Source of the DNA: Parcubacteria group bacterium
GTDB lineage: Bacteria; Patescibacteriota; Minisyncoccia; 2-02-FULL-40-12
DNA: 49,925 nt
Assembly: GCA_016186395.1 (NCBI GenBank)
Contig: JACPLU010000007.1
Coordinates: 1 to 49,925 of the forward strand
Direction: 5' to 3'
The notes under the pieces were generated by a model. That model made no database searches, was not told the origin of the DNA, and saw nothing but the letters and a program-made list of their open reading frames with translations. Shown one piece after another: positions 14,200-31,909 of this stretch; within the stretch, counting starts at the first letter, position 1, and each line of letters opens with the position of its first letter. The position numbers and the translations under genes are program-made.

Positions 14200-14493
14200 T
14201 TATAACGCCCCTTCGTCTCTTAATAATTGTAACTTCTTTTTAGTGCCTTTGGCAAAGCCGCCAATTTTTCCGTCAGAACGAATAACTCTGTGACAAGGTA
14301 TAGGGACTTGCCCTGCCCTTGTCTTGCTAAGGGCGGGATTTTTGTTAAGAGCATTACCAACCGCGCGGTAAGCCTGCGGTTGCCCAATTGCTTTTGCGAC
14401 TTGTTTATAAGTCATAGTTTTACCGCGTGAAATTTTAGCCACAACTGCGTATACTTTTTGTTGAAACTCTGTGATTTGTTTAAGTTTATTCAT
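14200..14493 (-). CDS. ogt: methylated-DNA--protein-cysteine methyltransferase (MGMT/Ogt DNA-binding domain)
   Basis: Contains the PCHRVI active-site motif. The ATG at 14493 follows AAGGA by 9 nt. The ORF track extends to a GTG at 14520. Confidence 0.85.
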   Translation of the reverse strand: MNKLKQITEFQQKVYAVVAKISRGKTMTYKQVAKAIGQPQAYRAVGNALNKNPALSKTRAGQVPIPCHRVIRSDGKIGGFAKGTKKKLQLLRDEGAL

Positions 14494-14503
14494 GTTTTGG
14501 GTT

Positions 14504-14535
14504 CCTTCTGCCCACGGCACTTCTAATTATTTTTA
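14504..14535. repeat. module-junction motif copy M0 (degenerate)
   Basis: ctgCCCACGGCACTTCTAATtatttttacc closely matches copy M3 (CCCATGATACTTCTAATattttattcc). Confidence 0.5.
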
Positions 14536-14542
14536 CCACGGG

Positions 14543-15199
14543 TCATGCGGATTGTCTTAGAATTTCTGCTGCTTTTCCTGGATTACCTCTACCTATCGGA
14601 AAATAACATGGCATTACCGGGATACCTAATCCAGAAACTGCTTCTGCAATTTTCTCCCATGAGCCATTCTGATAATCGGCTAGCCTTATACTCTTCCCTG
14701 TCAGTGTCTTATATACCAATCCGCCAAATGCTACGATTGCTTTCGGTTTCACCGTTTTAATTTCCTCCGCCAGTAATTTCAGCTGTTCTTTAATTATCGC
14801 CTTGGCAGGATAAGCACTGTGGTTATAACAACACTTCACGATATTCGTCAGAAATAATTTATTTCCAACCAATTCTCGCTTAATCTGTTCTGTATGGTTA
14901 TCGTTCCAATTTTTTCTTAACGGCAATCCGTAAGCAACTTTTTTATCAATCACACCGCCATCCGCCAATACTTTCCAGAATTGTCTTACACCTATAAACG
15001 GGAACCTATCTCCAAGATACCTTGAATCGGAACTTAAATTTCTGTATGTCGGATTTATCAGAATTAACATCAATTTCGGATTCATCGCACCATAACCATG
15101 AATATGCTGTAACTTGTTCCTTTCCGCTTTACAAAATTTGCATCTATCTACTTGTTGGTATAATTTTTGTAATTCCATGTTTCTCATGACCCATGACAC
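14543..15199 (-). CDS. uracil-DNA glycosylase superfamily protein (family 4/5-like)
   Basis: 218 aa with CKFC near the N-terminus, LILINP..., LTNIVKC and AFGG motifs. The start is uncertain (GTG 15199, ATG 15187 or ATG 15178). Confidence 0.75.
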   Translation of the reverse strand: MSWVMRNMELQKLYQQVDRCKFCKAERNKLQHIHGYGAMNPKLMLILINPTYRNLSSDSRYLGDRFPFIGVRQFWKVLADGGVIDKKVAYGLPLRKNWNDNHTEQIKRELVGNKLFLTNIVKCCYNHSAYPAKAIIKEQLKLLAEEIKTVKPKAIVAFGGLVYKTLTGKSIRLADYQNGSWEKIAEAVSGLGIPVMPCYFPIGRGNPGKAAEILRQSA

Positions 15200-15207
15200 T
15201 TTTGTGG
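15183..15207. repeat. module-junction motif copy M1
   Basis: CTCATGACCCATGACACTTTTGTGG, a tandem CATGACM heptamer followed by TTTTGT. Confidence 0.7.
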
Positions 15208-15211
15208 CTTA

Positions 15212-15240
15212 TTGACTAGTCTATGCGAATTTTATAGTAT
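15212..15240 (+). promoter_or_regulatory. sigma70-type promoter for the 15269 ORF
   Basis: TTGACT-N17-TAGTAT, followed by the AAGGAGG SD at 15255-15261. Confidence 0.55.
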
Positions 15241-15268
15241 ATCCACAGAGCATTAAGGAGGTACAATC

Positions 15269-15502
15269 ATGAATGCAAATCAGAAGTCAGAACTCCAACA
15301 GCTCCTTGAAAAAAACGCATACGGCACTGGATTATCTCCAGAAAAACAGAGTCGCGCTCATCAGCTCATTGCCAATCCTGACTTATCGGAAAAAAATTGC
15401 TGGGTCTGTGAAATATCACGTCCTGACGATACTCAAAAAGCTATTTTTGATACCGGACTTTGCCAAGGACACGCCCGCTATGCGTTAGTCACAAGGAAAT
15501 GA
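15269..15502 (+). CDS. hypothetical small protein (77 aa, CxxC...C..H)
   Basis: A strong SD (AAGGAGG) lies 7 nt upstream of the ATG and an intrinsic terminator follows directly. No family recognised. Confidence 0.6.
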   Translation: MNANQKSELQQLLEKNAYGTGLSPEKQSRAHQLIANPDLSEKNCWVCEISRPDDTQKAIFDTGLCQGHARYALVTRK

Positions 15503-15510
15503 TTGCTTCG

Positions 15511-15536
15511 GAGCCGCCATTGCGGCTCTTTTTCTT
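15511..15536 (+). terminator. intrinsic terminator
   Basis: GAGCCGC-CATT-GCGGCTC followed by TTTTTC. Confidence 0.8.
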
Positions 15537-15597
15537 TTCCCTACGCCCCATTACACCCAATACACTTCTCCCGGTAAAGAAATGCCGCATAAAATTA

Positions 15598-15626
15598 TTT
15601 ACAATCATTATTTGTCTTGATATTCT
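15598..15626 (+). promoter_or_regulatory. promoter P1 of the tRNA-like RNA
   Basis: TTTACA-N17-TATTCT. The predicted TSS (~15633) coincides with the first base of the 12-bp terminal helix. Confidence 0.5.
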
Positions 15627-15632
15627 GAATCT

Positions 15633-15710
15633 GCGGTGGGGGTGGCTTAGTTGCGGGATTCGGCTTACCATCCAGAGTCCTCGGGGTGCAAATCCCCGCA
15701 CCTCCACCGC
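15633..15710 (+). ncRNA. tRNA-like RNA resembling a tmRNA tRNA-like domain (acceptor helix, GGAUUCG box, T-arm, ACC end) with no anticodon arm or mRNA-like domain
   Basis: GCGGTGGGGGTG (15633-15644) pairs with CACCTCCACCGC (15699-15710). The T-arm is CGGGG-TGCAAAT-CCCCG (15682-15698). GGGATTCGGC resembles the tmRNA GGAUUCGAC box. Confidence 0.5.
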
Positions 15711-15734
15711 ATCAAAGGATATCCACATAACTTA

Positions 15735-15762
15735 TTGACAGAATTTTACATTTTGCTATACT
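15735..15762 (+). promoter_or_regulatory. promoter P2 (extended -10)
   Basis: TTGACA-N16-(TGc)TATACT. Near-duplicate of P3. Confidence 0.65.
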
Positions 15763-15768
15763 TAACGC

Positions 15769-15840
15769 AGATGGTAAGCCGAATCCGCTTCTAAGTTAGG
15801 ATTCCTGGAAAGCCGCAGAAATGCGGTTTTTTGGTTTTTT
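15769..15840 (+). ncRNA. ~70-nt small RNA; its 5' 28 nt are complementary to the internal loop of the tRNA-like RNA
   Basis: GATGGTAAGCCGAATCCGCTTCTAAGTT (15770-15797) is the imperfect complement of 15644-15672. Also has hairpin GAATCC/GGATTC and terminator CCGCA-GAAA-TGCGG plus a U-run (15811-15840). Confidence 0.55.
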
Positions 15841-15915
15841 AGTAACCAACCGCAGGCCTGCCGAAGCCTCGGCATAGGTGGGGATTTTCTTTATTTTAAG
15901 CCATTTTTTCAGCTA

Positions 15916-15943
15916 TTGACAAATTCTGTCAGTTTGCTATACT
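15916..15943 (+). promoter_or_regulatory. promoter P3 (extended -10)
   Basis: TTGACA-N16-(TGc)TATACT. The predicted TSS context cAGAT is the same as at P2. Confidence 0.65.
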
Positions 15944-15949
15944 TATTTC

Positions 15950-16165
15950 AGATTAGACCTTTAAACGGTGGGGTTGGCAGTGCCCCATAGGATCCGGATA
16001 AGCCGCGTGATGAAGCAACACGTGCCACGGGAGAAGTCTCGGGGTGGAAACAGGAGCTAGGAAGATCGTTTGGAGAATCTAGATGTACTCCAGGCGTGAA
16101 ACTTAGTCCTAACCCGAGAACTGCCAACATTTCATCCACCACTCTGTTGGTGGATTTTGCTTTTT
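15950..16165 (+). ncRNA. ~215-nt structured RNA of unknown class with its own promoter and terminator
   Basis: Helices GTTGGCAG (15973-80)/CTGCCAAC (16121-28), TCTCGGG (16037-43)/CCCGAGA (16113-19) and CGCGTG/CACGTG. Terminator ATCCACCA-CTCTGT-TGGTGGAT plus TTTTGCTTTTT (16134-16165). GC-rich in an AT-rich genome. Confidence 0.55.
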
Positions 16166-16175
16166 AGCGATACTA

Positions 16176-16194
16176 TCTCCCATGACACCTCTTA
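16176..16194. repeat. module-junction motif copy M2 (half motif)
   Basis: TCTCCCATGACACCTCTTA, the same TCTCCCATGACA core as M5. Lies directly after the terminator of the 215-nt RNA. Confidence 0.55.
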
Positions 16195-16288
16195 TACTAA
16201 CTGTCGCACAAGATGCATAATGCAGGGGATTGAGTTTAAATCGTATTCTGTGTATCCTATACATTAGTTATTTTCGTAGGAGGGTAAT

Positions 16289-16447
16289 ATGCCAGAAATA
16301 CTCGAGGGAATGAGATCAACATGTTGTAACGCACCTCTTTATATCGGCTATATGACTCCAATTGATACAGCACCGACTTTAGTATGCACCGCGTGCCATG
16401 AACGCGATAGAGAGGCAGAAAAGGAATACGACAAAACTCATATCTAA
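16289..16447 (+). CDS. hypothetical 52-aa Zn-ribbon-like protein (not in the ORF track, <60 aa)
   Basis: AGGAGGG SD 4 nt upstream of the ATG. Sequence MPEILEGMRSTCCNAPLYIGYMTPIDTAPTLVCTACHERDREAEKEYDKTHI. An intrinsic terminator follows. Confidence 0.55.
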   Translation: MPEILEGMRSTCCNAPLYIGYMTPIDTAPTLVCTACHERDREAEKEYDKTHI

Positions 16448-16455
16448 TCTTCCAA

Positions 16456-16477
16456 AAGCCTAAAACAGGCTTTTTTC
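16456..16477 (+). terminator. intrinsic terminator
   Basis: AAGCCT-AAAAC-AGGCTT followed by TTTT. Confidence 0.7.
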
Positions 16478-16480
16478 TTA

Positions 16481-16511
16481 TTCTCATAACCCATGATACT
16501 TCTAATATTTT
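16481..16511. repeat. module-junction motif copy M3
   Basis: TTCTCATAACCCATGATACTTCTAATATTTT, directly after the terminator of the 52-aa ORF. Confidence 0.65.
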
Positions 16512-16606
16512 ATTCCCGTCTATCAATAATTTTAACCTCAAGTAGATCCTACTTGAAACCAAATTATAAATACATGATCTGATATTCTAAGGTAAGACTT
16601 TGGGTA

Positions 16607-16684
16607 TTTGAAAACCGAACCTATTTTAACATCTTCAACATCTTCTCAAATGGCCACGCATTAATGACATGGTTTTTTTGTTTA
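16607..16684 (-). pseudogene. orphan copy of the polX 3' end (last ~20 codons, stop and ~15 nt downstream)
   Basis: About 90% identical to 18869-18942. Would encode KQKNHVINAWPFEKMLKMLK*, against polX ATKNHVINAWPLEKMLRMLK*. No upstream polX body. Confidence 0.8.
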
Positions 16685-16705
16685 AGTTTACTAACACTAA
16701 AATAC

Positions 16706-16918
16706 TTATCTAAAGTCTTTTTCATTTAAATTAGATTGGCGAAGAATAGACTTAAAAGTTCCAACTGGAATCTCTTTTTTATTTGCTGGGACTATAACTA
16801 TTAGTTTAATCCTGCCGGATTTATAAAATTTCATGTGACTTCCTTTTTGCGAAGTAAAAACAAAGCCCTTCTTTTTAAGGACTTTAATAATATAGTCGGA
16901 TGAATGAAGCTTAGACAC
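16706..16918 (-). CDS. hicA: HicA-family mRNA interferase toxin
   Basis: 70 aa with ...KKKGFVFTSQKGSHMKF...VPANKKEIPVGTFKSILRQ. The GTG start overlaps the hicB stop (GTGTCTAA). Confidence 0.85.
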   Translation of the reverse strand: MSKLHSSDYIIKVLKKKGFVFTSQKGSHMKFYKSGRIKLIVIVPANKKEIPVGTFKSILRQSNLNEKDFR

Positions 16919-17132
16919 GAGAATTAAAACTTAGTATTTGCGGTCTTTCAATTTTTGGAATAACTGGCTTTTTAGTATCCTCAAAATATAACTCTAGAGC
17001 TTCTTTTACGTTACTTACGGCCTCTTTTTGGCTTTTACCAAAGCTTGAAACATCAACATTCAAACATTGAGCAACAAAGTATTTACCCTCCTTCCAAACG
17101 ACTATTTTAAGATTTTGAATATATTTAAACAT
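16911..17132 (-). CDS. hicB: HicB-family antitoxin (UPF0150 fold only)
   Basis: 73 aa with ...VVWKEGKYFVAQCLNVDVSSFGKSQKEAVSNVKEALELYFED. Upstream of hicA and translationally coupled to it. Confidence 0.8.
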   Translation of the reverse strand: MFKYIQNLKIVVWKEGKYFVAQCLNVDVSSFGKSQKEAVSNVKEALELYFEDTKKPVIPKIERPQILSFNSRV

Positions 17133-17164
17133 ATACTTAAATTTACATCACTGAAATAAAAAAA

Positions 17165-17375
17165 TCAAACAACAACTGCCCGCAGAACCGTCTGATTTTA
17201 TAACTCTATGGCATCGTCGAGGACGAGGGCGAAGAGCCCACCTACGACGAACAGTTGTATACTGCCTAGGTTGAGGCGTTTCGAGCCATTGGCTCGTTCG
17301 CCTAACCAACTAAACTGCCTGTGCCCCGCATCGTGTTTGTGAAAGCAAACTCCGATGCGGGGCTCTTTTTTCTTT
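17165..17375 (+). ncRNA. GC-rich structured RNA with a strong plus-strand intrinsic terminator (5' end undefined)
   Basis: Helices ACAACTG (17172-78)/CAGTTGT (17252-58), CGTCG..GGGC-GAAGA-GCCC..CGACG and GGTTGAGGCG...CGCCTAACC. Terminator GCCCCGCATCG...CGATGCGGGGC plus TCTTTTTTC (17323-17375). Confidence 0.45.
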
Positions 17376-17384
17376 GCCAAAATC

Positions 17385-17410
17385 CATCCCCATGACCCAC
17401 ACCTTTGTTG
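17385..17410. repeat. module-junction motif copy M4
   Basis: CATCCCCATGACCCACACCTTTGTTG, directly after the terminator of the GC-rich RNA. Confidence 0.6.
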
Positions 17411-17440
17411 TTTATCCCATTTCATAAAATGTCATACTGA

Positions 17441-17800
17441 CTACACCTTCCTTTGTCTTTCTATAACTAACCCATCAAGCGCGTCTCTCATTTTTGTAAG
17501 TGACTTTCTAAAGTATTTTTCAAAAAATATAGCAGGGATATCAAATACTGCATAAAACAGCCACAATTCAGTACTTTTCACACCGTATTTCTTCATTAAC
17601 TTTTTCACCCCACCCGAAACGGTAAATTTCCCTACCCCTTCTTTAATAGCCAACGCAGTCGTATTCGGACAATTCTTTTCACCTTGCACAAACGGCCCTT
17701 TGCAGATATTTTCTGGAACCAACCTACCTTTCAACTCTCCCAGTTGTTGCTCGGAAAGATCGAATTTCCTGATTATCTTCTTGTATAATTGCTTAATCAT
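17441..17800 (-). CDS. hypothetical protein (119 aa)
   Basis: ATG start preceded by GGGAGA. No recognisable family. Confidence 0.5.
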   Translation of the reverse strand: MIKQLYKKIIRKFDLSEQQLGELKGRLVPENICKGPFVQGEKNCPNTTALAIKEGVGKFTVSGGVKKLMKKYGVKSTELWLFYAVFDIPAIFFEKYFRKSLTKMRDALDGLVIERQRKV

Positions 17801-17808
17801 ATATTATA

Positions 17809-17840
17809 TCTCCCATGACATCTTTACACTTTGTTGACTG
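17809..17840. repeat. module-junction motif copy M5
   Basis: TCTCCCATGACATCTTTACACTTTGTTGACTG. Confidence 0.65.
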
Positions 17841-17855
17841 TCACACACGATTTTA

Positions 17856-18341
17856 TCAATCTTTTACTAAAATCTTTACTCCTAAAATTTGGTTTAATTT
17901 TTCGGCTATCTTTCTACCTTCGTCGCTAAATAACCATGCAAATAATTTGACATTTTCAATGTGTGGGATAGCATCTACTGTTTCTTTAAACATTTCAATC
18001 ACCAACCCCCTCCTTCTATGTTCCGGTACCGTAAACGCGGCACAAAGATATAATGCTTCGTATCTATCTTGCGGTTTAGTCAGATCGAGTAATTCACATT
18101 CGTTAATTTCTCCTCTTAAAAACTTACCCATTAACTCTATTTGGGTCGGTAATACAACTACCCAACTGATCGGTTCTCCATTCTTTAATCTGTAAACGAC
18201 AGTTTTTGGATGCAACTCTTGCAGTTTATAGAATGACTCTCTCGTCATCGGCATCTGATTAGGATCGTCTGCTGTTCCAAAAAACCGTTCCGCGATATTT
18301 AACATTTTGTCTAACACTTTTTCATCCATATTTTTCTTCAT
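17856..18341 (-). CDS. GNAT-like acetyltransferase (weak assignment)
   Basis: 161 aa. ...FTVPEHRRRGLVIEMF resembles the acetyl-CoA-binding motif A (R/Q-x-x-G-x-G/A) and the size fits a GNAT fold. Confidence 0.35.
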   Translation of the reverse strand: MKKNMDEKVLDKMLNIAERFFGTADDPNQMPMTRESFYKLQELHPKTVVYRLKNGEPISWVVVLPTQIELMGKFLRGEINECELLDLTKPQDRYEALYLCAAFTVPEHRRRGLVIEMFKETVDAIPHIENVKLFAWLFSDEGRKIAEKLNQILGVKILVKD

Positions 18342-18360
18342 GACCTATGACACTTTTGTT
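18336..18360. repeat. module-junction motif copy M6
   Basis: CTTCATGACCTATGACACTTTTGTT, nearly identical to M1. Confidence 0.7.
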
Positions 18361-18462
18361 TTTTCAATAACTGCGTATATTTTTTGTTGGAAAGGTATAC
18401 TTTTCATTTTTTAAATATTAGTATTAATATCACAATAATAGAATAATTACAGAGGATTGAAA

Positions 18463-18792
18463 ATGAAGTTAGAAGAGTTCTTTAAAAATTTGGCCAAAAT
18501 AAAAGGAGAATATAACTGGTATATTACCCACGGTGAACTGATCAGAGCAAATAGAAAAACAAATAAATCAATAACCTATTGTCCAGTAACGGCAATGTAC
18601 CGGTCACTAAAAAATAAAACTCTTAATACTTATAGCATAGAAAAAGCGGGTACAAAGTTAGGACTTTCAATACGAGATCTGACTAAAATCCAAAATGCTT
18701 CAGATTTTGAAGGCCCAATTTCAGAAACCCGCAAGAGAATCCTTGAAATACTTAAACCTGAAAAAAGAAAAGATATACCTTCTTTACTTTAA
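18463..18792 (+). CDS. hypothetical protein (~109 aa)
   Basis: The ATG at 18463 lies 7 nt after AGAGGA. The ORF track starts at a TTG at 18457. No family recognised. Confidence 0.5.
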   Translation: MKLEEFFKNLAKIKGEYNWYITHGELIRANRKTNKSITYCPVTAMYRSLKNKTLNTYSIEKAGTKLGLSIRDLTKIQNASDFEGPISETRKRILEILKPEKRKDIPSLL

Positions 18793-18877
18793 TAACCCTA
18801 GCCCTTCGGCGATTCGACCACTTCGACAGGCTCAGGACAAGCAAGCTCACCGCAAGCTGCGCTCAAGGTTGAAATTT

Positions 18878-20710
18878 TTACTTTAACATCCTCAACATCT
18901 TCTCTAACGGCCACGCATTAATCACGTGGTTTTTTGTTGCCCAACCACGACGAGCTTGGGCTATACCATATTCCAACCAGCCAAAATGTGAAATATTATG
19001 AGCATCCGAATTTATGGCAAATTTTATTCCACCCATATCAACCGCTTTTCGAATATACTCATCTTTTAAATCTAACCGATCTGGACCAGCATTTATTTCC
19101 AAAACAGTTTTTGTAAGCTTTGCGGCTTTTAATATTTCGTCTATATCAAGTTTAATTGCTTCTCTGCGACCGATAATCCGTCCAGTTGGATGAAAAATGA
19201 TATCTACGTTTTGGTTTTCCATAGCACGAATTACTCTAGCGGTTTGTTCTTTTTCTGAAAGATTAAAATGAGAATGAACAGATGCACCAACAACATCTAA
19301 CTTTGCCAATACTTCATCTACGATATCTAATGAACCATCTTTTAAAATATTTACTTCCGCGCCTTTGAGAACGTGAAACTTGGAACCTACCCGCCCCGCT
19401 TCGCTTGGCGAGGCCGGGGAAACATGAAACTCCTTATTGATTTTATCTATTTCAGTCATTTGTTTAAGCAACTTCTTTTCGTCGCTTCCACCAGTCATGG
19501 CTAAAGATTTGGTATGATCTGTAATACAAATATATTCAAGACCGGCTTTCTTTGCAGCCTCGGCCATTTCTTTAATTGAATTTTCTCCGTCAGTCCAATT
19601 TGTTTGAGTTTGTAAATCCCCCTTTATTGAATTATAAGAAATAAGATCTGGCAGTTTTCTTTCTTGGCCAGCTTCAATTTCTCCATGATTTTTTCTAATT
19701 TCTGGCGGGGGATAACTCATACCAAGTGCCTCATAAATTTCTTCCTCTGTTTTCCCTGCAACTAATTTTTTGTCCTTATATAAACCGTACTCATTAAGCT
19801 TATAGCCTTTTTCCGCCCGAGGCGGATCCATCTTTGGCGGAGAATTTTTAATTTTGTATAACCCATACTCATTTAATGTATATCCCTTACTAAGAGCTAT
19901 CTCTCGCAATTTAATATTATGATATTTATCGCCGGTAAAATACTGCAATGCCGCACCGAATGATTCCGGCGGCAAAACCCGTAAATCCGCATCCATCCCA
20001 ATATCTAAACGAACGGTAGATTTTGTTTCACCTTTACCATATACCGCCATTACTTCTGGCATAGAAACAAAAAAGTCCATCACTTCTGATGGTTTTTTTG
20101 AAATGACAAGAATATCCAAGTCACCAATTGTTTCCTGCATTCGCCTTAATGACCCGGCAGGCATGACTTTTTCAACTCCAGGTACTTTTTCAAGTCTTTC
20201 TATAATCCTACGGGCAATCGGCAGTACTTCGCCAAGATTAAACCTCCCATGACTTTGTTTTAAAAAAGAAATGCTTTGTAATAGTTTTTGTTCTGTTTTT
20301 TCACCAAAACCCTCAATATCGCGAAGCTTATGACTGACAAGTGCTTTTTCTAATTGAGCGACCGTTTCGATATCTAACTTTTTATAAAGTTTTAAAATTT
20401 TCTTTGGGCCCAAACCTTCAATTTTACTTAAATTCTCTAAATCAACTGGAACTTCTTTTTTAAGTTTATCAAAATCTTCTACATGTCCGGTTTTAATATA
20501 TTCCTCAATTCGTTCAGAAATTCCCTTACCTACACCAGGAATTGCCTCAAGTCCTTTAATCCCCGATTTTTTATAAATCTCAACCACATCTTCACTTAAA
20601 GTTTCAATTGCATACGCTGCTTTTTCAAAAGCTCGAGGCTTAAAAGGAATTTCTTTCATATCCAAAAGAATAGCTACTTCATTTAATAATTTTGCTAATT
20701 TTTCATTCAT
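18878..20710 (-). CDS. polX: family X DNA polymerase with C-terminal PHP domain
   Basis: 610 aa with HhH motifs (GIGKG...), a Pol-beta-like nucleotidyltransferase core (GSLRR...GDLDIL) and PHP histidines (HTKS..., SVHSH, NSDAH). Confidence 0.9.
   Translation of the reverse strand: MNEKLAKLLNEVAILLDMKEIPFKPRAFEKAAYAIETLSEDVVEIYKKSGIKGLEAIPGVGKGISERIEEYIKTGHVEDFDKLKKEVPVDLENLSKIEGLGPKKILKLYKKLDIETVAQLEKALVSHKLRDIEGFGEKTEQKLLQSISFLKQSHGRFNLGEVLPIARRIIERLEKVPGVEKVMPAGSLRRMQETIGDLDILVISKKPSEVMDFFVSMPEVMAVYGKGETKSTVRLDIGMDADLRVLPPESFGAALQYFTGDKYHNIKLREIALSKGYTLNEYGLYKIKNSPPKMDPPRAEKGYKLNEYGLYKDKKLVAGKTEEEIYEALGMSYPPPEIRKNHGEIEAGQERKLPDLISYNSIKGDLQTQTNWTDGENSIKEMAEAAKKAGLEYICITDHTKSLAMTGGSDEKKLLKQMTEIDKINKEFHVSPASPSEAGRVGSKFHVLKGAEVNILKDGSLDIVDEVLAKLDVVGASVHSHFNLSEKEQTARVIRAMENQNVDIIFHPTGRIIGRREAIKLDIDEILKAAKLTKTVLEINAGPDRLDLKDEYIRKAVDMGGIKFAINSDAHNISHFGWLEYGIAQARRGWATKNHVINAWPLEKMLRMLK
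19371..19431. repeat. in-frame 51-nt GC-rich hairpin insert in polX flanked by a 10-nt direct repeat
   Basis: acgtgaaact ... acatgaaact flank CCCCGCTTCGC-TTG-GCGAGGCCGGGG. Encodes FHVSPASPSEAGRVGSKFHV. Confidence 0.65.
19775..19882. repeat. in-frame 48-nt insert in polX flanked by a 30-nt diverged duplication
   Basis: Y(K/T)LNEYGLYK is encoded twice (19775-19804 and 19853-19882) around a core containing TCCGCC-CGA-GGCGGA. Confidence 0.65.
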
Positions 20711-20797: not shown

Positions 20798-21430
20798 CTA
20801 AATTTTTTTGATTATAGTATCAACCCGTGAATGCAATTGTTCAATCGTCCCGTTGTTATCAATTGTGGCAAATAATGGAATCTTCGAAAAATCAACTGTT
20901 TTTTCAAACTCGGCACGATCCCATACGTTCTGAACCATCTTTTCTGCGGTATTCACCCGAATCTCTCCAGGCGTAGATATCCAATTTTCGTCCTCGTACT
21001 TTTTTCGCATCCGTTCTGCGGCGATTACCGAGTCTGTCATAACTCGAACATAAAATACTGGTACCGAAAACTGGCTGGCGACTGATTCAATATTTTGACG
21101 ATCTTTTTCATCTAAAGCATTTCCGTCAAGAACCACTCCATACCCTTGCTCAAACAGTTTCTGCATTGAAAAACGCAAGAGGATCCGTACGTTCTCACCC
21201 CATTCCAGTGTATTATCACGTAAAATGCTTCGGGCATCATTTGCGCTAACAAGTACCGATGCCATACCTTGAACAACTTTCAGCCTTTTTGCAATAGTTG
21301 TTCGTCCTGATCCAGGAATTCCAATCAAGGCAACCACAAATGGCTTATTTCCTTTCTCGTAAAATTGCGGAACTAAAAATCGTTCATAAAAACTTTGCGC
21401 AACATTTGTTAAAAATTTTTCTTTATCCAC
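20798..21430 (-). CDS. P-loop NTPase/kinase-like protein (AAA_33/zeta-toxin-like fold)
   Basis: 210 aa with Walker A GIPGSGRTT and Walker-B-like VVLDG. Apparent GTG start. Confidence 0.5.
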   Translation of the reverse strand: MDKEKFLTNVAQSFYERFLVPQFYEKGNKPFVVALIGIPGSGRTTIAKRLKVVQGMASVLVSANDARSILRDNTLEWGENVRILLRFSMQKLFEQGYGVVLDGNALDEKDRQNIESVASQFSVPVFYVRVMTDSVIAAERMRKKYEDENWISTPGEIRVNTAEKMVQNVWDRAEFEKTVDFSKIPLFATIDNNGTIEQLHSRVDTIIKKI

Positions 21431-30196: not shown

Positions 30197-31909
30197 CTAA
30201 GATGGTTTATCCTTATTTTTTGATAACGCCTTTTCTAAAACCTCACGCAAACTTTCAATATCGGGTTTTTTCATCTCTTCCTTTAAAGCCGCCTGGTTTA
30301 AATCTTTTTCTGGCCTGTCTTGATTTTCTTTTTTTATCCCGCCCTTAAGTTTAAGAGCGGGGTCAAGGGCGAGGTTTACTGTCTGCCCACCTTCGCTCAA
30401 GCTACGGTGGACAGGCCTTCCTTTAAAATCCACAGCTCCCTGTTTAAAAGCGGCTTCAAGACCTATTCCTGACTTCCTTTGTGGCATAACCGTCTTAGGT
30501 GCTCTATAAACATCGTTATCAAATCTTTTTTTAGGCTCGCTAGAAAAACCTTCTCGACCGCGAGAAAAATTATCCTGGCGATTTGAACGGCTTGATTCCG
30601 GCCTTCCATAACCTCTAGGCGAAGAATCTTCAATCGGTTCTGCCCAAAGATTTATTTCGGCTTCTATCTTTTCTCGTGAACCACCAAAATGTTCCCTTGA
30701 TGCTTTGACAATTGCCTCACGAAAAGAATTAACCTCACTTGACATAGGCGGTAAGGTGGCGGCCGAAAAAGCTTTTGAAGCAATGCCGTCAATCATTAAT
30801 TTAAGATAGATAGTCCATTTACCAAGATTTACAATATCCTGGATAGTAAATTCAGGAGCAAACTCTTTTTCTAGAGCTTCGGCGTCTTCAGCACCAACTC
30901 TAAAAGTAACAAGAGTTCCAACATTACCAAATACAGCATCTCTTACTTTCTCGTCCATCTGCATTATGTATTGGTGAGCCAATATAAGATTTAGTTTATA
31001 TTTCCTGGCTTCTGACAGAATCGAAGCAAACGATTCTGTTGCAAAGTTCTGGAATTCATCAACATAAAGATAAAAATCTTTTCGATCCGGTTCAAGAATA
31101 TCAACCCTGGACATCGCTGCAAGCTGTAGGCGGGTAACCATTAAAGCCCCAAGTAATCTTGAGGTATCCTCGCCGATTTTGCCTTTGGATAAATTGAGTA
31201 TGAGAATTTTACCCGAGTCCATAATTTCTCGCATGTTCAAAGCAGATTTTTCTTGACCAACGATATTTCTAATTAAGGTTGCGGAAGTAAATTGACCAAC
31301 CTTATTCTGAATAGCTGCGGTTGCTTCAGAAGCCAACCTATCTGTATATTTTGCAAACTCCTGAACCCAAAAAGCTTTAACTACCGGGTCCTGGACTTTT
31401 TCAACTACTTTTTTCCTATATTCTTTGTCCGCTAACATTCTGTTAATTCCCAAAAGAGTTGACCCAGGATATTCTAAAAGAGCCAAAATCGTATTGTTCA
31501 AAATATATTCCATTCTGGCTGACCAAACATCCACCCATATTTTTTTAAACACACCCATAACTCCTGCGGCTACCAAATGCCTATACTCCGGATTTACCTG
31601 TTCCATTATGTTAAAACCGATCGGATACGACACATCAGAAGGATCAAAATATATAACATCATTCACTCTTTCAGCAGGTATATAATCAAGCAACGAATCA
31701 GCGGTATCTCCATGAGGGTCAACAAAAGCTAAACCGTGTCCCATTTGAATATCTTGAATTGCCATATTTTTTAAAATTTCTGTTTTGCCCATTCCGGTTT
31801 TTCCTATTATATACATATGCCTTCTGCGATCATCCGGCTTAATACCAAAACGCACCCGTTTGTTACGGAAATTTGTCTCCCCAAAAAATACTATACTACT
31901 ATCGTTCAT
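30197..31909 (-). CDS. soluble VirD4/TraD/TraG-like (type IV coupling protein family) P-loop ATPase with a disordered C-terminal tail
   Basis: 570 aa with Walker A GKTGMGKT and Walker B LYVDEFQNF. No N-terminal TM segments. The last ~140 aa are low-complexity and charged. Confidence 0.7.
   Translation of the reverse strand: MNDSSIVFFGETNFRNKRVRFGIKPDDRRRHMYIIGKTGMGKTEILKNMAIQDIQMGHGLAFVDPHGDTADSLLDYIPAERVNDVIYFDPSDVSYPIGFNIMEQVNPEYRHLVAAGVMGVFKKIWVDVWSARMEYILNNTILALLEYPGSTLLGINRMLADKEYRKKVVEKVQDPVVKAFWVQEFAKYTDRLASEATAAIQNKVGQFTSATLIRNIVGQEKSALNMREIMDSGKILILNLSKGKIGEDTSRLLGALMVTRLQLAAMSRVDILEPDRKDFYLYVDEFQNFATESFASILSEARKYKLNLILAHQYIMQMDEKVRDAVFGNVGTLVTFRVGAEDAEALEKEFAPEFTIQDIVNLGKWTIYLKLMIDGIASKAFSAATLPPMSSEVNSFREAIVKASREHFGGSREKIEAEINLWAEPIEDSSPRGYGRPESSRSNRQDNFSRGREGFSSEPKKRFDNDVYRAPKTVMPQRKSGIGLEAAFKQGAVDFKGRPVHRSLSEGGQTVNLALDPALKLKGGIKKENQDRPEKDLNQAALKEEMKKPDIESLREVLEKALSKNKDKPS

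Follow-up and report, generated by a model that had tools for sequence, protein, structure and literature searches.

Motif copies in a small-gene islet of a Parcubacteria group bacterium are probably decayed 3' ends of secA

The short motif that recurs in an islet of small genes in this Parcubacteria group bacterium is probably, as judged from sequence comparison, a set of decayed last codons and stop codon of secA, i.e. the end of the SEC-C zinc finger with which SecA terminates. Its minus-strand reading is AAG TGT CAT GGG TCA TGA, which translates to K-C-H-G-S-stop. The motif is best taken as the scar left, and possibly also the site used, when DNA is inserted by a single crossover at the tail of a conserved gene. 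The original prediction had described the motif as a tandem CATGACM heptamer and proposed, as one of its possible roles, a cassette junction; the junction idea is partly supported, but the sequence itself had gone unrecognised as the tail of secA, and the heptamer arises from the succession of codons CAT-GGG-TCA-TGA. In M3 and M6 (Table 1) there is just one heptamer because both read C-H-G-R.

The identification came from a genome scan using CATGACCCATGACACTT as the query, which returned 33 matches, 11 of them in genomes of the ultra-small CPR bacteria. In L148, L160, L163, L165 and L171 the reverse complement of the match ends an ORF reading …GRNDPCPCGSGKK(Y/F)KKCHG(S/A)-stop, and the ORF that ends in this way is a full-length SecA in L163 (895 aa) and in L171 (856 aa). 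The scan of species-representative genomes gave a single exact match per CPR genome, and the copies did not show the terminal inverted repeats or palindromic units and the many dispersed copies per genome that characterise REP/MITE-type dispersed repeats.

We searched the window, i.e. the whole stretch of 49,925 nucleotides that was analysed, for the core CCCATGACAC with at most one mismatch and found seven matches, all on the plus strand and all within 15190-18353, compared with 1.13 expected on both strands; none of 100 shuffled sequences reached seven. The 15-mer CATGACCCATGACAC with at most three mismatches gave four matches compared with 0.46 expected. That the core looks highly conserved is in part a circular result, since the copies were retrieved using the core as query. 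All seven positions in the original prediction hold a copy on the plus strand, the one at 14504 being degenerate (CCCACGGCAC, two core mismatches) and owing its credibility solely to orthologous relics, which lie downstream of UDG in other genomes. The count of seven was nevertheless incomplete, as it missed an eighth core copy at 15547 (CCCATTACAC), right behind the terminator of the 77-aa ORF, and a repeat unit without the core at 15835-15905, behind a small-RNA terminator. The copies cluster within 4 kb, and no minus-strand copy was found in the window. The statement that copies are confined to 14.5-18.4 kb also stood: the other 45 kb contain none (core, at most one mismatch), and the sole core-like match outside the islet, CCCATGAC at 20246 within polX, has two mismatches over the 10-mer and is compatible with chance. 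That a copy edges every module, however, goes too far. The tRNA-like RNA (about 15638-15712) has none, nor does the upstream (right) edge of hicBA, where the GC-rich RNA stands between hicBA and M5; on the other side of hicBA lies the duplicated polX tail.

Table 1. Features of the islet and of the neighbouring polX 3' end
Feature	Position	Strand	Description
Cassette payloads	14200..18792		ogt, UDG, 77-aa ORF, two small RNAs, 215-nt RNA, 52-aa ORF, hicA, hicB, GC-rich RNA, 119-aa gene, GNAT-like gene, 111-aa gene
M1	14504..14545	minus	Decayed relic between UDG and ogt; K-C-R-G-Q
UDG start	15178
M2	15183..15240	minus	'Type I' relic unit; P-Q-K-C-H-G-S-stop, then GAAAC, then UDG ATG
M2b	15540..15556	minus	C-N-G-A-stop; core match with 1 mismatch; behind 77-aa ORF terminator
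Core-less unit	15835..15905	minus	'Type II' relic unit, …AACCAACCGCAGG…GGATTTTCTTTATTTTAAGCC; 23-nt GC-rich insertion
M3	16170..16205	minus	Relic, Y-K-R-C-H-G-R-stop, read directly; behind 215-nt RNA terminator
M4	16481..16516	minus	Relic, K-Y-H-G-L-stop; behind 52-aa ORF terminator
polX 3'-end duplicate	16622..16678	minus	57 nt; 19 codons and stop; 89% identical to real tail; repeat family D2
M5	17385..17412	minus	Relic with 3-nt deletion; behind plus-strand terminator of GC-rich RNA
M6	17806..17860	minus	'Type I' relic unit; R-C-H-G-R
M7	18336..18372	minus	K-Q-K-C-H-R-S-stop; G codon GGG mutated to AGG; directly upstream of GNAT-like gene
ogt' fragment	18373..18405	minus	Start codon and first codons of second ogt allele, truncated where M7 begins
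Real polX 3' end	18879..18935	minus

The strongest comparisons involve the copies next to the GNAT-like gene and UDG, whose close homologues stand just downstream of secA in CPR relatives. The GNAT-like homologue lies 8 nt past secA in the Wolfebacteria genome L175 and just past secA in L173, and the L175 junction DNA aligns base by base with M7 and with the beginning of the window's GNAT-like gene. M7 is collinear both with this true secA-tail-to-GNAT junction and with a relic-to-GNAT junction in L184. In five other genomes, additional genes are located between the true secA tail and a decayed copy of it. The orders found include secA, DUF4304, relic (G-Y-K-R-C-H-E-L-stop) and GNAT-like gene in L184; secA, DUF6624, relic and UDG in L181; secA, about 100 nt, relic and UDG in L182; secA, six genes, relic and UDG in L180; and secA, NUDIX, relic and next gene in L171. 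In the Azambacteria genome L163, secA is followed by five genes, a duplicate of the secA 3' end (290 nt, 99% identity), an opposite-strand module and an older relic. Comparison with related genomes, which had been suggested as a check, thus finds inserted DNA bounded by tail copies in L163, L171, L180, L181, L182 and L184, all of which have an intact secA at the end of the array. UDG is flanked on both sides by relic tails in L180, L181 and L182; those upstream are orthologous to M2, whose junction also resembles the secA-to-NUDIX junction of L171, and those downstream (K-F-K-R-C-H-G-Q-stop in L182) are orthologous to M1.

The assignment of M3, M4, M5, M6 and M2b is based on the core, a short second box and similarity chains via units of other genomes; an HMM of true secA tails with the core excluded gave no significant match to the relic flanks. 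M6 matches a unit in L134 with 85% identity over 48 nt, 17362-17413 (M5) is 80% identical over 55 nt to a relic with its flank in L163, and M4 matches the region of the true secA tail in Saccharibacteria L148 with 85% identity over 40 nt. The flank 'ccctacgc' of M2b matches A-stop-type relics in L161, L163 and L171, and 15509-15555 is 81% identical to L161. The core-less unit, just upstream of the 215-nt RNA promoter, matches core-bearing units in L133, L163, L148 and L157, with 15881-15944 being 90.6% identical to L157. Within the islet, M4 and M1 share a longer repeat (family D13) and repeat family D7 pairs M3 with M6. The CPR contigs L155, L134, L133, L161, L157 and L148 contain arrays that are likewise built up of terminator, relic, promoter and small ORF, and the earlier observation that the motif sits right behind the terminators of plus-strand units is borne out at M5, M4 and M3.

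For the minus-strand genes the motif represents the stop region of a lost upstream secA and not a start-codon element. A common ribosome-binding or translation-initiation region for these genes seems highly improbable to us. It would account for the GGGAGA 8 nt upstream of the ATG of the 119-aa gene, which is derived from relic M6, and for the in-frame ATGs within M2 and M7, where gene callers often start UDG homologues (214-aa calls). However, M2b, M3, M4, M5 and the core-less unit have no minus-strand gene behind them, and the GNAT-like and UDG homologues start at a downstream ATG, GTG or TTG. The ATG inside the motif is probably not the true start of either gene, and the GNAT-like gene probably begins at 18329. 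A purine-rich Shine-Dalgarno sequence 5-10 nt before the start was found only for the 119-aa gene, and most genes of this genome lack such sites; the plus-strand ORFs have strong AGGAGG sites, and most core genes look leaderless.

A second role that had been put forward is that of an operator or upstream promoter element of a shared transcription regulator, with the small modules as its regulon and the core at about -57 to -48 of sigma70-type plus-strand promoters. Its best evidence is the arrangement CCCATGACAC-N12-TTGACT, which recurs with the same 22-nt spacing at M2 and M6 of the window and in units of L134, L155, L161 and L171; exact core-to-TTGACT spacing of type I units in six genomes could reflect function rather than descent. 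At M2 the promoter scan found TTGACT-N17-TAGTAT on the plus strand, facing the 77-aa ORF. In addition, several of the flanking genes are DNA-repair genes, and a perfectly palindromic form, GTGTCATG-N3-CATGACAC, as is typical of the sites of dimeric proteins, occurs in phage-like contigs. This palindromic form of the 17-22-mer was seen in marine phage-like contigs (L135, five copies) and in IMG/VR contigs (L007, L101), in none of which was a link to secA demonstrable; in relatives, terminal inverted cores of 10-14 bp are present in only some units. Among the window copies, however, the fixed spacing is confined to M2 and M6, and M1, M2b, M4, M5 and M7 have no such promoter behind them. In L181 the same unit lies inside a gene 3' end, where there is nothing to drive, the motif is absent from relatives that share the core genes, and no candidate regulator co-occurs with it. 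Moreover, M7, M2 and M1 are collinear with secA stop regions, so that common descent explains both the sequence and the 22-nt spacing to the -35 box. We consequently regard the operator role as quite unlikely.

With secA tails as the preferred origin, the arrays can be arranged into a sequence of events. Insertion right behind the secA stop appears to have recurred in CPR bacteria, new DNA seeming to enter there via a single crossover at the conserved tail sequence. One copy of the tail would be kept on secA, and the second would come to lie beyond the insert and decay there; repeated events would generate an array of tail, cassette, relic, cassette and relic, in which the relics all share one orientation and the cargo is free to take either. 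The islet would be such an array, now detached from secA. As in att scars at gene 3' ends, the repeat is homologous to the 3' end of its target, but no secA, SEC-C ORF or trace of a secA body was found in the window, and the L155 and L157 arrays do not adjoin secA; detachment or secondary insertion sites must accordingly be assumed. For polX, both the intact target and the tail duplicate are present in the window: they bound a 2.2-kb stretch (16679-18878) that holds M5, M6 and M7 and seems to have entered at the polX 3' end in the same way as the inserts at secA. Some relics may since have been co-opted, e.g. as the Shine-Dalgarno-like sequence of the 119-aa gene or, where they carry an antisense sigma70-like promoter, for expression of plus-strand modules.

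A DNA-level role of the motif, as originally predicted, is supported in the sense of a junction, since in relatives the tail duplicates part inserted genes from former neighbours of secA. A nearby recombinase was looked for and none was found, either among the 30 window ORFs that were scanned against Pfam (the window has about 19 more of 100 aa or longer) or among the nine ORFs flanking the L155 and L161 arrays. An active role in recombination is for this reason something that we infer, as we do the single-crossover mechanism, its site-specific or homology-driven nature and its present-day activity. The missing recombinase would also fit the copies being inert pseudogene debris, with no preferred site and no present function of the core. 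They would stem from sporadic tandem duplications or illegitimate insertions that persisted for the sole reason that secA, an essential gene, was left with a complete tail. Around UDG the orthologous relics have decayed about as fast as the DNA beside them, and the window copies have no special DNA secondary structure, folding no better than shuffled sequences (z = -0.8, -1.8 and +0.4 for window units), both of which are compatible with such debris. Nevertheless, we consider it unlikely. In at least five independent genomes no more than a few bases separate the insert from the secA stop and a duplicate of the tail lies on its far side, homology of the units between genomes begins within about 5-9 nt of the core, and up to eight relics in 4 kb would be hard to obtain without site preference.

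The payloads were defined from ORFs, Pfam matches and a promoter/terminator scan, and comprise repair genes, a GNAT-like gene, a HicAB toxin-antitoxin pair, small zinc-ribbon-like ORFs and small RNAs. The GNAT-like and UDG homologues reach 70-82% identity, whereas the best outside match of MurG is at about 50%, and GNAT-like homologues are present in other phyla. These similarities, together with the AGGAGG sites of the plus-strand ORFs in a genome whose core genes mostly look leaderless, indicate that the cargo is horizontally mobile. The ogt' fragment is 82% identical over 34 nt to the ogt codons at 14433-14466 (repeat family D8).

A more far-reaching reading, which we offer tentatively, is that of integron-like cassette capture in CPR bacteria with the SEC-C coding sequence as attachment site, where cassettes bearing a tail-like site would circularise and be exchanged across CPR classes. 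If so, single-gene cargo (defence, toxin-antitoxin, immunity-like and repair genes, small ORFs and small RNAs) would be inserted right behind the secA stop and, in second place, at the tails of further genes, e.g. polX, by a recombinase encoded elsewhere or by host recombination. Integron arrays consist of small, mostly single-gene cassettes, and attC clusters without an integrase exist. The islet resembles them in its small single-gene cassettes, in a recurring site at or over the end of the cassette ORF, in sites of one orientation with cargo of varying orientation, and in cargo rich in toxin-antitoxin, acetyltransferase, immunity-like and unknown small genes. It differs in that many cassettes have their own promoter and terminator and in that the site derives from the tail of a protein-coding gene; the window units lack the imperfect palindrome of attC with inverse core sites at both ends, and no IntI with adjacent attI and Pc promoter, nor any tyrosine recombinase, was found among the 30 scanned window ORFs.

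In T4-type phages, promoter-early stem-loops (PeSL) are promoter-plus-hairpin units that flank shuffled gene modules. The relics are similar regulatory repeats at module boundaries, which could both drive expression and provide homology for shuffling, but they are gene-tail relics on a bacterial chromosome and only some carry a promoter. Mobile modules that exploit XerCD/dif carry copies of a short recombination site of the host at their boundaries, with the recombinase encoded elsewhere; similar use of a distant recombinase would explain an islet without an integrase, although the motif does not have the dif-like architecture of two arms around a 6-bp spacer.

The closest parallel is with islands and prophages at the 3' ends of tRNA, tmRNA or protein genes, which are bounded by direct repeats of the target, sometimes in tandem arrays, as with SGI1 at the trmE 3' end (PMC8409611, PMC2297512). 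In common with these, the islet has foreign DNA edged by duplicates of a conserved gene's 3' end, repeats of one orientation, arrays that grow by successive insertions at the same gene end, and a target that is intact in relatives. In contrast to them, the inserts are tiny (one to few genes), the duplicates are between about 25 nt and 290 nt long, the window array is detached from its target and no integrase was found. The target is also different, i.e. the SEC-C codons of secA, which were not found as an insertion target in the literature searched.

In the window, which has a G+C content of 37% and nearly all of its genes on the minus strand, the core CCCATGACAC was matched seven times with at most one mismatch; the expectation was 1.13, and seven matches were reached in none of 100 shuffles. 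All of these matches are on the plus strand and within 15190-18353, in agreement with the original prediction that the motif has no copy outside 14.5-18.4 kb. The seven copies that it listed are all present on this strand, although the one at 14504 (M1) is weak (CCCACGGCAC). The list was incomplete: it lacked an eighth copy at 15547 (M2b), 3' of the terminator of the 77-aa ORF, and a core-less copy of a longer repeat unit. It was further claimed that a copy marks the edge of every module whatever the gene orientation. When the minus strand is read from high to low coordinates a copy does precede most modules, but two modules, the tRNA-like RNA and hicBA, each lack one.

Islet order along the minus strand (1-16, high to low coordinates), with motif copies M1-M7 and M2b (position of start; strand and peptide of the reading as a secA ending) and, below, further features of the window
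No.	Feature	Position	Strand	Peptide
1	polX			
2	GC-rich stretch, 75 nt			
3	111-aa gene		opposite	
4	5' fragment of second ogt allele	18373-18405	minus	
5	M7, then GNAT-like gene	18336	minus	K-Q-K-C-H-R-S-stop
6	M6, then 119-aa gene	17806	minus	R-C-H-G-R
7	M5, then GC-rich RNA (opposite strand)	17385		
8	hicB, hicA			
9	57-nt duplicate of polX 3' end	16622-16678		
10	M4, then 52-aa ORF (opposite strand)	16481	minus	K-Y-H-G-L-stop
11	M3, then 215-nt RNA (opposite strand)	16170	minus	Y-K-R-C-H-G-R-stop
12	Core-less unit, then two small RNAs (opposite strand)	15835-15905		
13	M2b, then 77-aa ORF (opposite strand)	15540	minus	C-N-G-A-stop
14	M2, then UDG	15183	minus	P-Q-K-C-H-G-S-stop
15	M1, then ogt	14504	minus	K-C-R-G-Q
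16	murG			
	polX copy of the 57-nt repeat	18879-18935		
	44-nt duplication inside polX	19767-19810 / 19845-19888		
	GC-rich RNA	17165-17372	plus	
	215-nt RNA unit	15914-16166	plus	
	Small RNA after tRNA-like element	15768-15840		
	Promoter similar to that of 215-nt RNA	15733-15772		
	tRNA-like element	15638-15712		
	TraG/VirD4-like coupling ATPase ORF	30197-31909		
	AAA_33/zeta-toxin-type kinase	20798-21430		
	Start codons of leaderless-looking genes	1830, 3156, 5332, 10008, 35815	minus	

A metagenome scan with a 22-mer led to two groundwater contigs (L133 and L134) with the same order of terminator, motif and promoter, and CATGACCCATGACACTT was matched 33 times in species-representative genomes, 11 times in those of CPR bacteria (Saccharibacteria, Harrison-, Azam-, Lipton-, Sungii-, Zambryski- and Gottesmanbacteria). 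In five of these 11 the reverse complement ends an ORF reading …GRNDPCPCGSGKK(Y/F)KKCHG(S/A)-stop, which is the SEC-C zinc finger of the SecA C-terminus; in L163 (Azambacteria) and L171 this ORF is full-length SecA. Because these matches end SecA ORFs, we read the motif on the minus strand as AAG TGT CAT GGG TCA TGA, i.e. K-C-H-G-S-stop, which by its sequence is the tail of secA. Every window copy with a tabulated peptide translates directly as a point-mutated version of this ending, and what had been described as a tandem heptamer consists of no more than the codons CAT-GGG and then TCA-TGA. The repeat is therefore homologous to the target gene, as in the scars of integration at gene 3' ends.

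The same arrangement was found downstream of secA in relatives. In L173 and L175 (the latter from Wolfebacteria) a GNAT-like homologue directly follows secA, and the L175 junction (…AAATATAAAAAGTGCCACGGGTCATGAGAAACAATATGAATGAC…) matches M7 and the start of the window GNAT-like gene base for base. In L184, DUF4304 and then a relic tail reading G-Y-K-R-C-H-E-L-stop lie between secA and the GNAT-like gene. The UDG homologues of L182, L181 and L180 are all downstream of murB-hpf-secA, separated from the true secA tail by zero, one (DUF6624) and six genes respectively, and in all three a relic tail directly precedes UDG; M2 and M1 are orthologous to the relic tails that flank UDG on both sides in these loci (alignment A2). 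L171 has the order secA, NUDIX, relic, next gene. In L163 secA and five genes are followed by a 290-nt duplicate of the secA 3' end (99% identical), beyond which lie an opposite-strand small-ORF module and an older, more decayed relic. The intact target gene is thus present at the array end in relatives and absent in the window, where tblastn with seven SecA proteins detected no secA and no remnant of the secA body beyond the short relics.

Homologues of the GNAT-like protein are 70-82% identical, other phyla included, and those of UDG reach 70-80%, whereas MurG is at best ~50% identical outside its own strain (best matches in Yanofskybacteria-like Patescibacteria), which indicates that the cargo genes have moved horizontally. 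The closest relatives by core genes (L126-L130, MurG ~50%) keep ogt-murG-holB-frr and lack the motif. Exact-protein look-ups returned only same-strain fragments, and a first scan of species genomes with MurG peptide patterns gave no matches. The inserts after secA in L184, L181, L180, L171 and L163 include DUF4304, DUF6624, AbiEii, NUDIX and HAD-type enzymes, with a Fic gene nearby; several are of defence or accessory type, and this cargo resembles that of the window islet (HicAB, GNAT-like gene). No cassette was found to be common to the window and other arrays, except for a weak hicB match in L171.

A second gene in the window carries the same signature. The left copy of the 57-nt direct repeat (89% identical) duplicates the final 19 codons of polX together with the stop (K-N-H-V-I-N-A-W-P-F-E-K-M-L-K-M-L-K-stop), and the pair bounds 2.2 kb of foreign-looking DNA containing M5, M6 and M7, suggesting that DNA was inserted at the 3' end of polX. 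Since the window has neither secA nor a remnant of its body, either the array became detached from secA or cassettes also enter other tails, such as that of polX. Of a second ogt allele only an orphan 5' end is present (M-K-S-I-P-F-Q-Q-K-I-Y-A-V…); its identity with the intact ogt (14433-14466) is 82% across 34 nt, and it is truncated where M7 begins. The interior of polX also has a 44-nt duplication of 70% identity, giving the repeated peptide KGY(T/K)LNEYGLYK in the PolX thumb region.

The recurring order is the true tail, an inserted gene 4-13 nt past its stop, a displaced tail copy and the formerly adjacent gene. This order would be produced by a single crossover between a circular DNA carrying a tail-like sequence and the chromosomal tail, either site-specific or by Campbell-type homologous recombination, and after several such events the relics of the resulting array would all point the same way. 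The ORF of a cassette often ends within the next relic unit (the NUDIX gene of L171 and DUF6624 of L181), and the window GNAT-like gene ends beside M6. The cassette or recombination junction of the original prediction is partly supported: where the motif comes from, that it is collinear with secA junctions and that duplicated tails flank the inserts are shown, but the mechanism and any present-day activity are inferred; we consider the origin-and-junction reading likely and any specific recombination mechanism less so. A nearby recombinase, which had been suggested, was found neither among 30 window ORFs scanned against Pfam nor beside two other arrays (9 flanking ORFs in L155 and L161). The coupling ATPase (TrwB_AAD_bind, TraG-D_C) and the zeta-toxin-type kinase of the window lie among housekeeping genes and are not recombinases. 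An attC-like or hairpin structure was also considered and rejected, the window copies being unstructured on folding.

Many relics are part of a longer unit, 60-110 nt in size. Units of type I consist of core-N12-TTGACT-N17-(-10 box) on the plus strand with an exact 22-nt spacing (M2, M6 and units in L134, L155, L161, L171 and L181), and in several cases lie upstream of a Shine-Dalgarno site and a small ORF. Type II units (core…AATAACCAACCGCAGGGATTTTCTTTATTTTAAGCC) occur in L133, L163 and the Saccharibacteria loci L148 and L157; the window copy is core-less and together with its adjoining promoter is 90.6% identical over 64 nt to L157, where another small RNA is under the control of this promoter. 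Units with a promoter may represent relics that were co-opted and travel with cassettes. The original prediction also offered the operator of a shared regulator as a role for the core, but this is disfavoured because most window copies have no promoter and the L181 unit sits within the 3' end of a gene; to annotate the motif as a regulatory site would first require a direct test. Reversed, the units look like decayed …N-P-C-G…K-C-H-G tails. Derivation of their flanks from secA is only suggestive, because the relic flanks gave no significant match to an HMM built from true secA tails minus the core. Conservation along the units, profiled position by position, was not counted as evidence, the copies having been selected by their core.

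The original prediction placed the motif at or over the start codon of minus-strand genes. Homologues of the GNAT-like gene start at the equivalent of 18329 (M-D-E-K-V-L-D-K-M-L) and those of UDG at the equivalent of 15178, and the ATG and GTG codons inside the motif (18329-18341 and 15178-15199) are probably not the real starts. Gene callers often stretch UDG homologues into the relic, giving 214-aa calls. Most core genes have no Shine-Dalgarno site; their start codon is preceded at 7-9 nt by a TATAAT-like box, and they therefore look leaderless; several of them share an upstream ATTCGTATATT(A/G)GTATC-like motif. The plus-strand ORFs of the islet, by contrast, have strong AGGAGG sites.

The islet also encodes several putative small RNAs. 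The tRNA-like element has a 12-bp acceptor-like stem and a T-arm (GGGGTGCAAATCCCC) but no ARAGORN call. After it comes a small RNA with its own promoter; the 5' end of this RNA (15770-15786) is a perfect 17-nt complement of the interior of the tRNA-like element (15656-15672), so that the two could be an antisense pair. The 215-nt RNA has a near-consensus promoter (TTGACA-16-TATACT), which duplicates the neighbouring one at 78% identity, a terminator, and a predicted fold only weakly better than shuffles (z = -1.6). The GC-rich RNA (~208 nt) has a strong terminator and a fold far more stable than shuffles (z = -6.3), and is conserved in L163 at its 3' flank only. Neither RNA matched an Rfam family; across the islet no family reached the gathering threshold, with chance-level matches only at E up to 5, and tRNA/tmRNA searches found none.

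A palindromic form of the motif, GTGTCATGGGTCATGACAC, has five copies within 2.7 kb (1-2692) of a marine phage-like contig (L135), four of them upstream of a start codon and three of these within 15-25 nt. Contigs L131 and L132 carry this form too, as do L007 and L101 from IMG/VR. No link to secA could be shown in L135, L007 or L101. A 232-aa protein of L135 resembles early genes of Roseobacter phage CRP-5 and Pelagibacter phage Greip, both of which lack the motif. A phage-polymerase promoter (the motif read as …GTGTCATGGGAGA), considered after L135, was dropped because the CPR copies follow terminators and precede ordinary sigma70-like promoters on the other strand. Scans of viral contigs for CPR-type units gave no match, short motif scans of them gave chance single matches, and viral 17-mer matches fall inside a phage coding sequence reading …CKERKCHGSC….

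CPR (Patescibacteria) genomes are tiny, and the route by which they acquire genes is little known. Should the secA tail prove to be a general insertion point, recently acquired genes could be located in thousands of CPR assemblies by a simple marker, namely their place after secA or the presence of K-C-H-G-stop relics. Such an insertion point would further account for islets that vary between strains, and would indicate a route of recombination that may need no integrase linked to it. Literature searches found nothing relevant on the motif itself and no description of secA as an insertion target, the closest known kinds being islands at gene 3' ends and integron cassette arrays. Unlike the former, the window array has no integrase that we could find and no intact target gene, but it shares with them direct-repeat scars and, apparently, tandem accretion, the repeat being homologous to its secA target. 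The window copies do not show the fold of integron attC sites, but attC abuts the cassette ORFs, as the relic units often do here.
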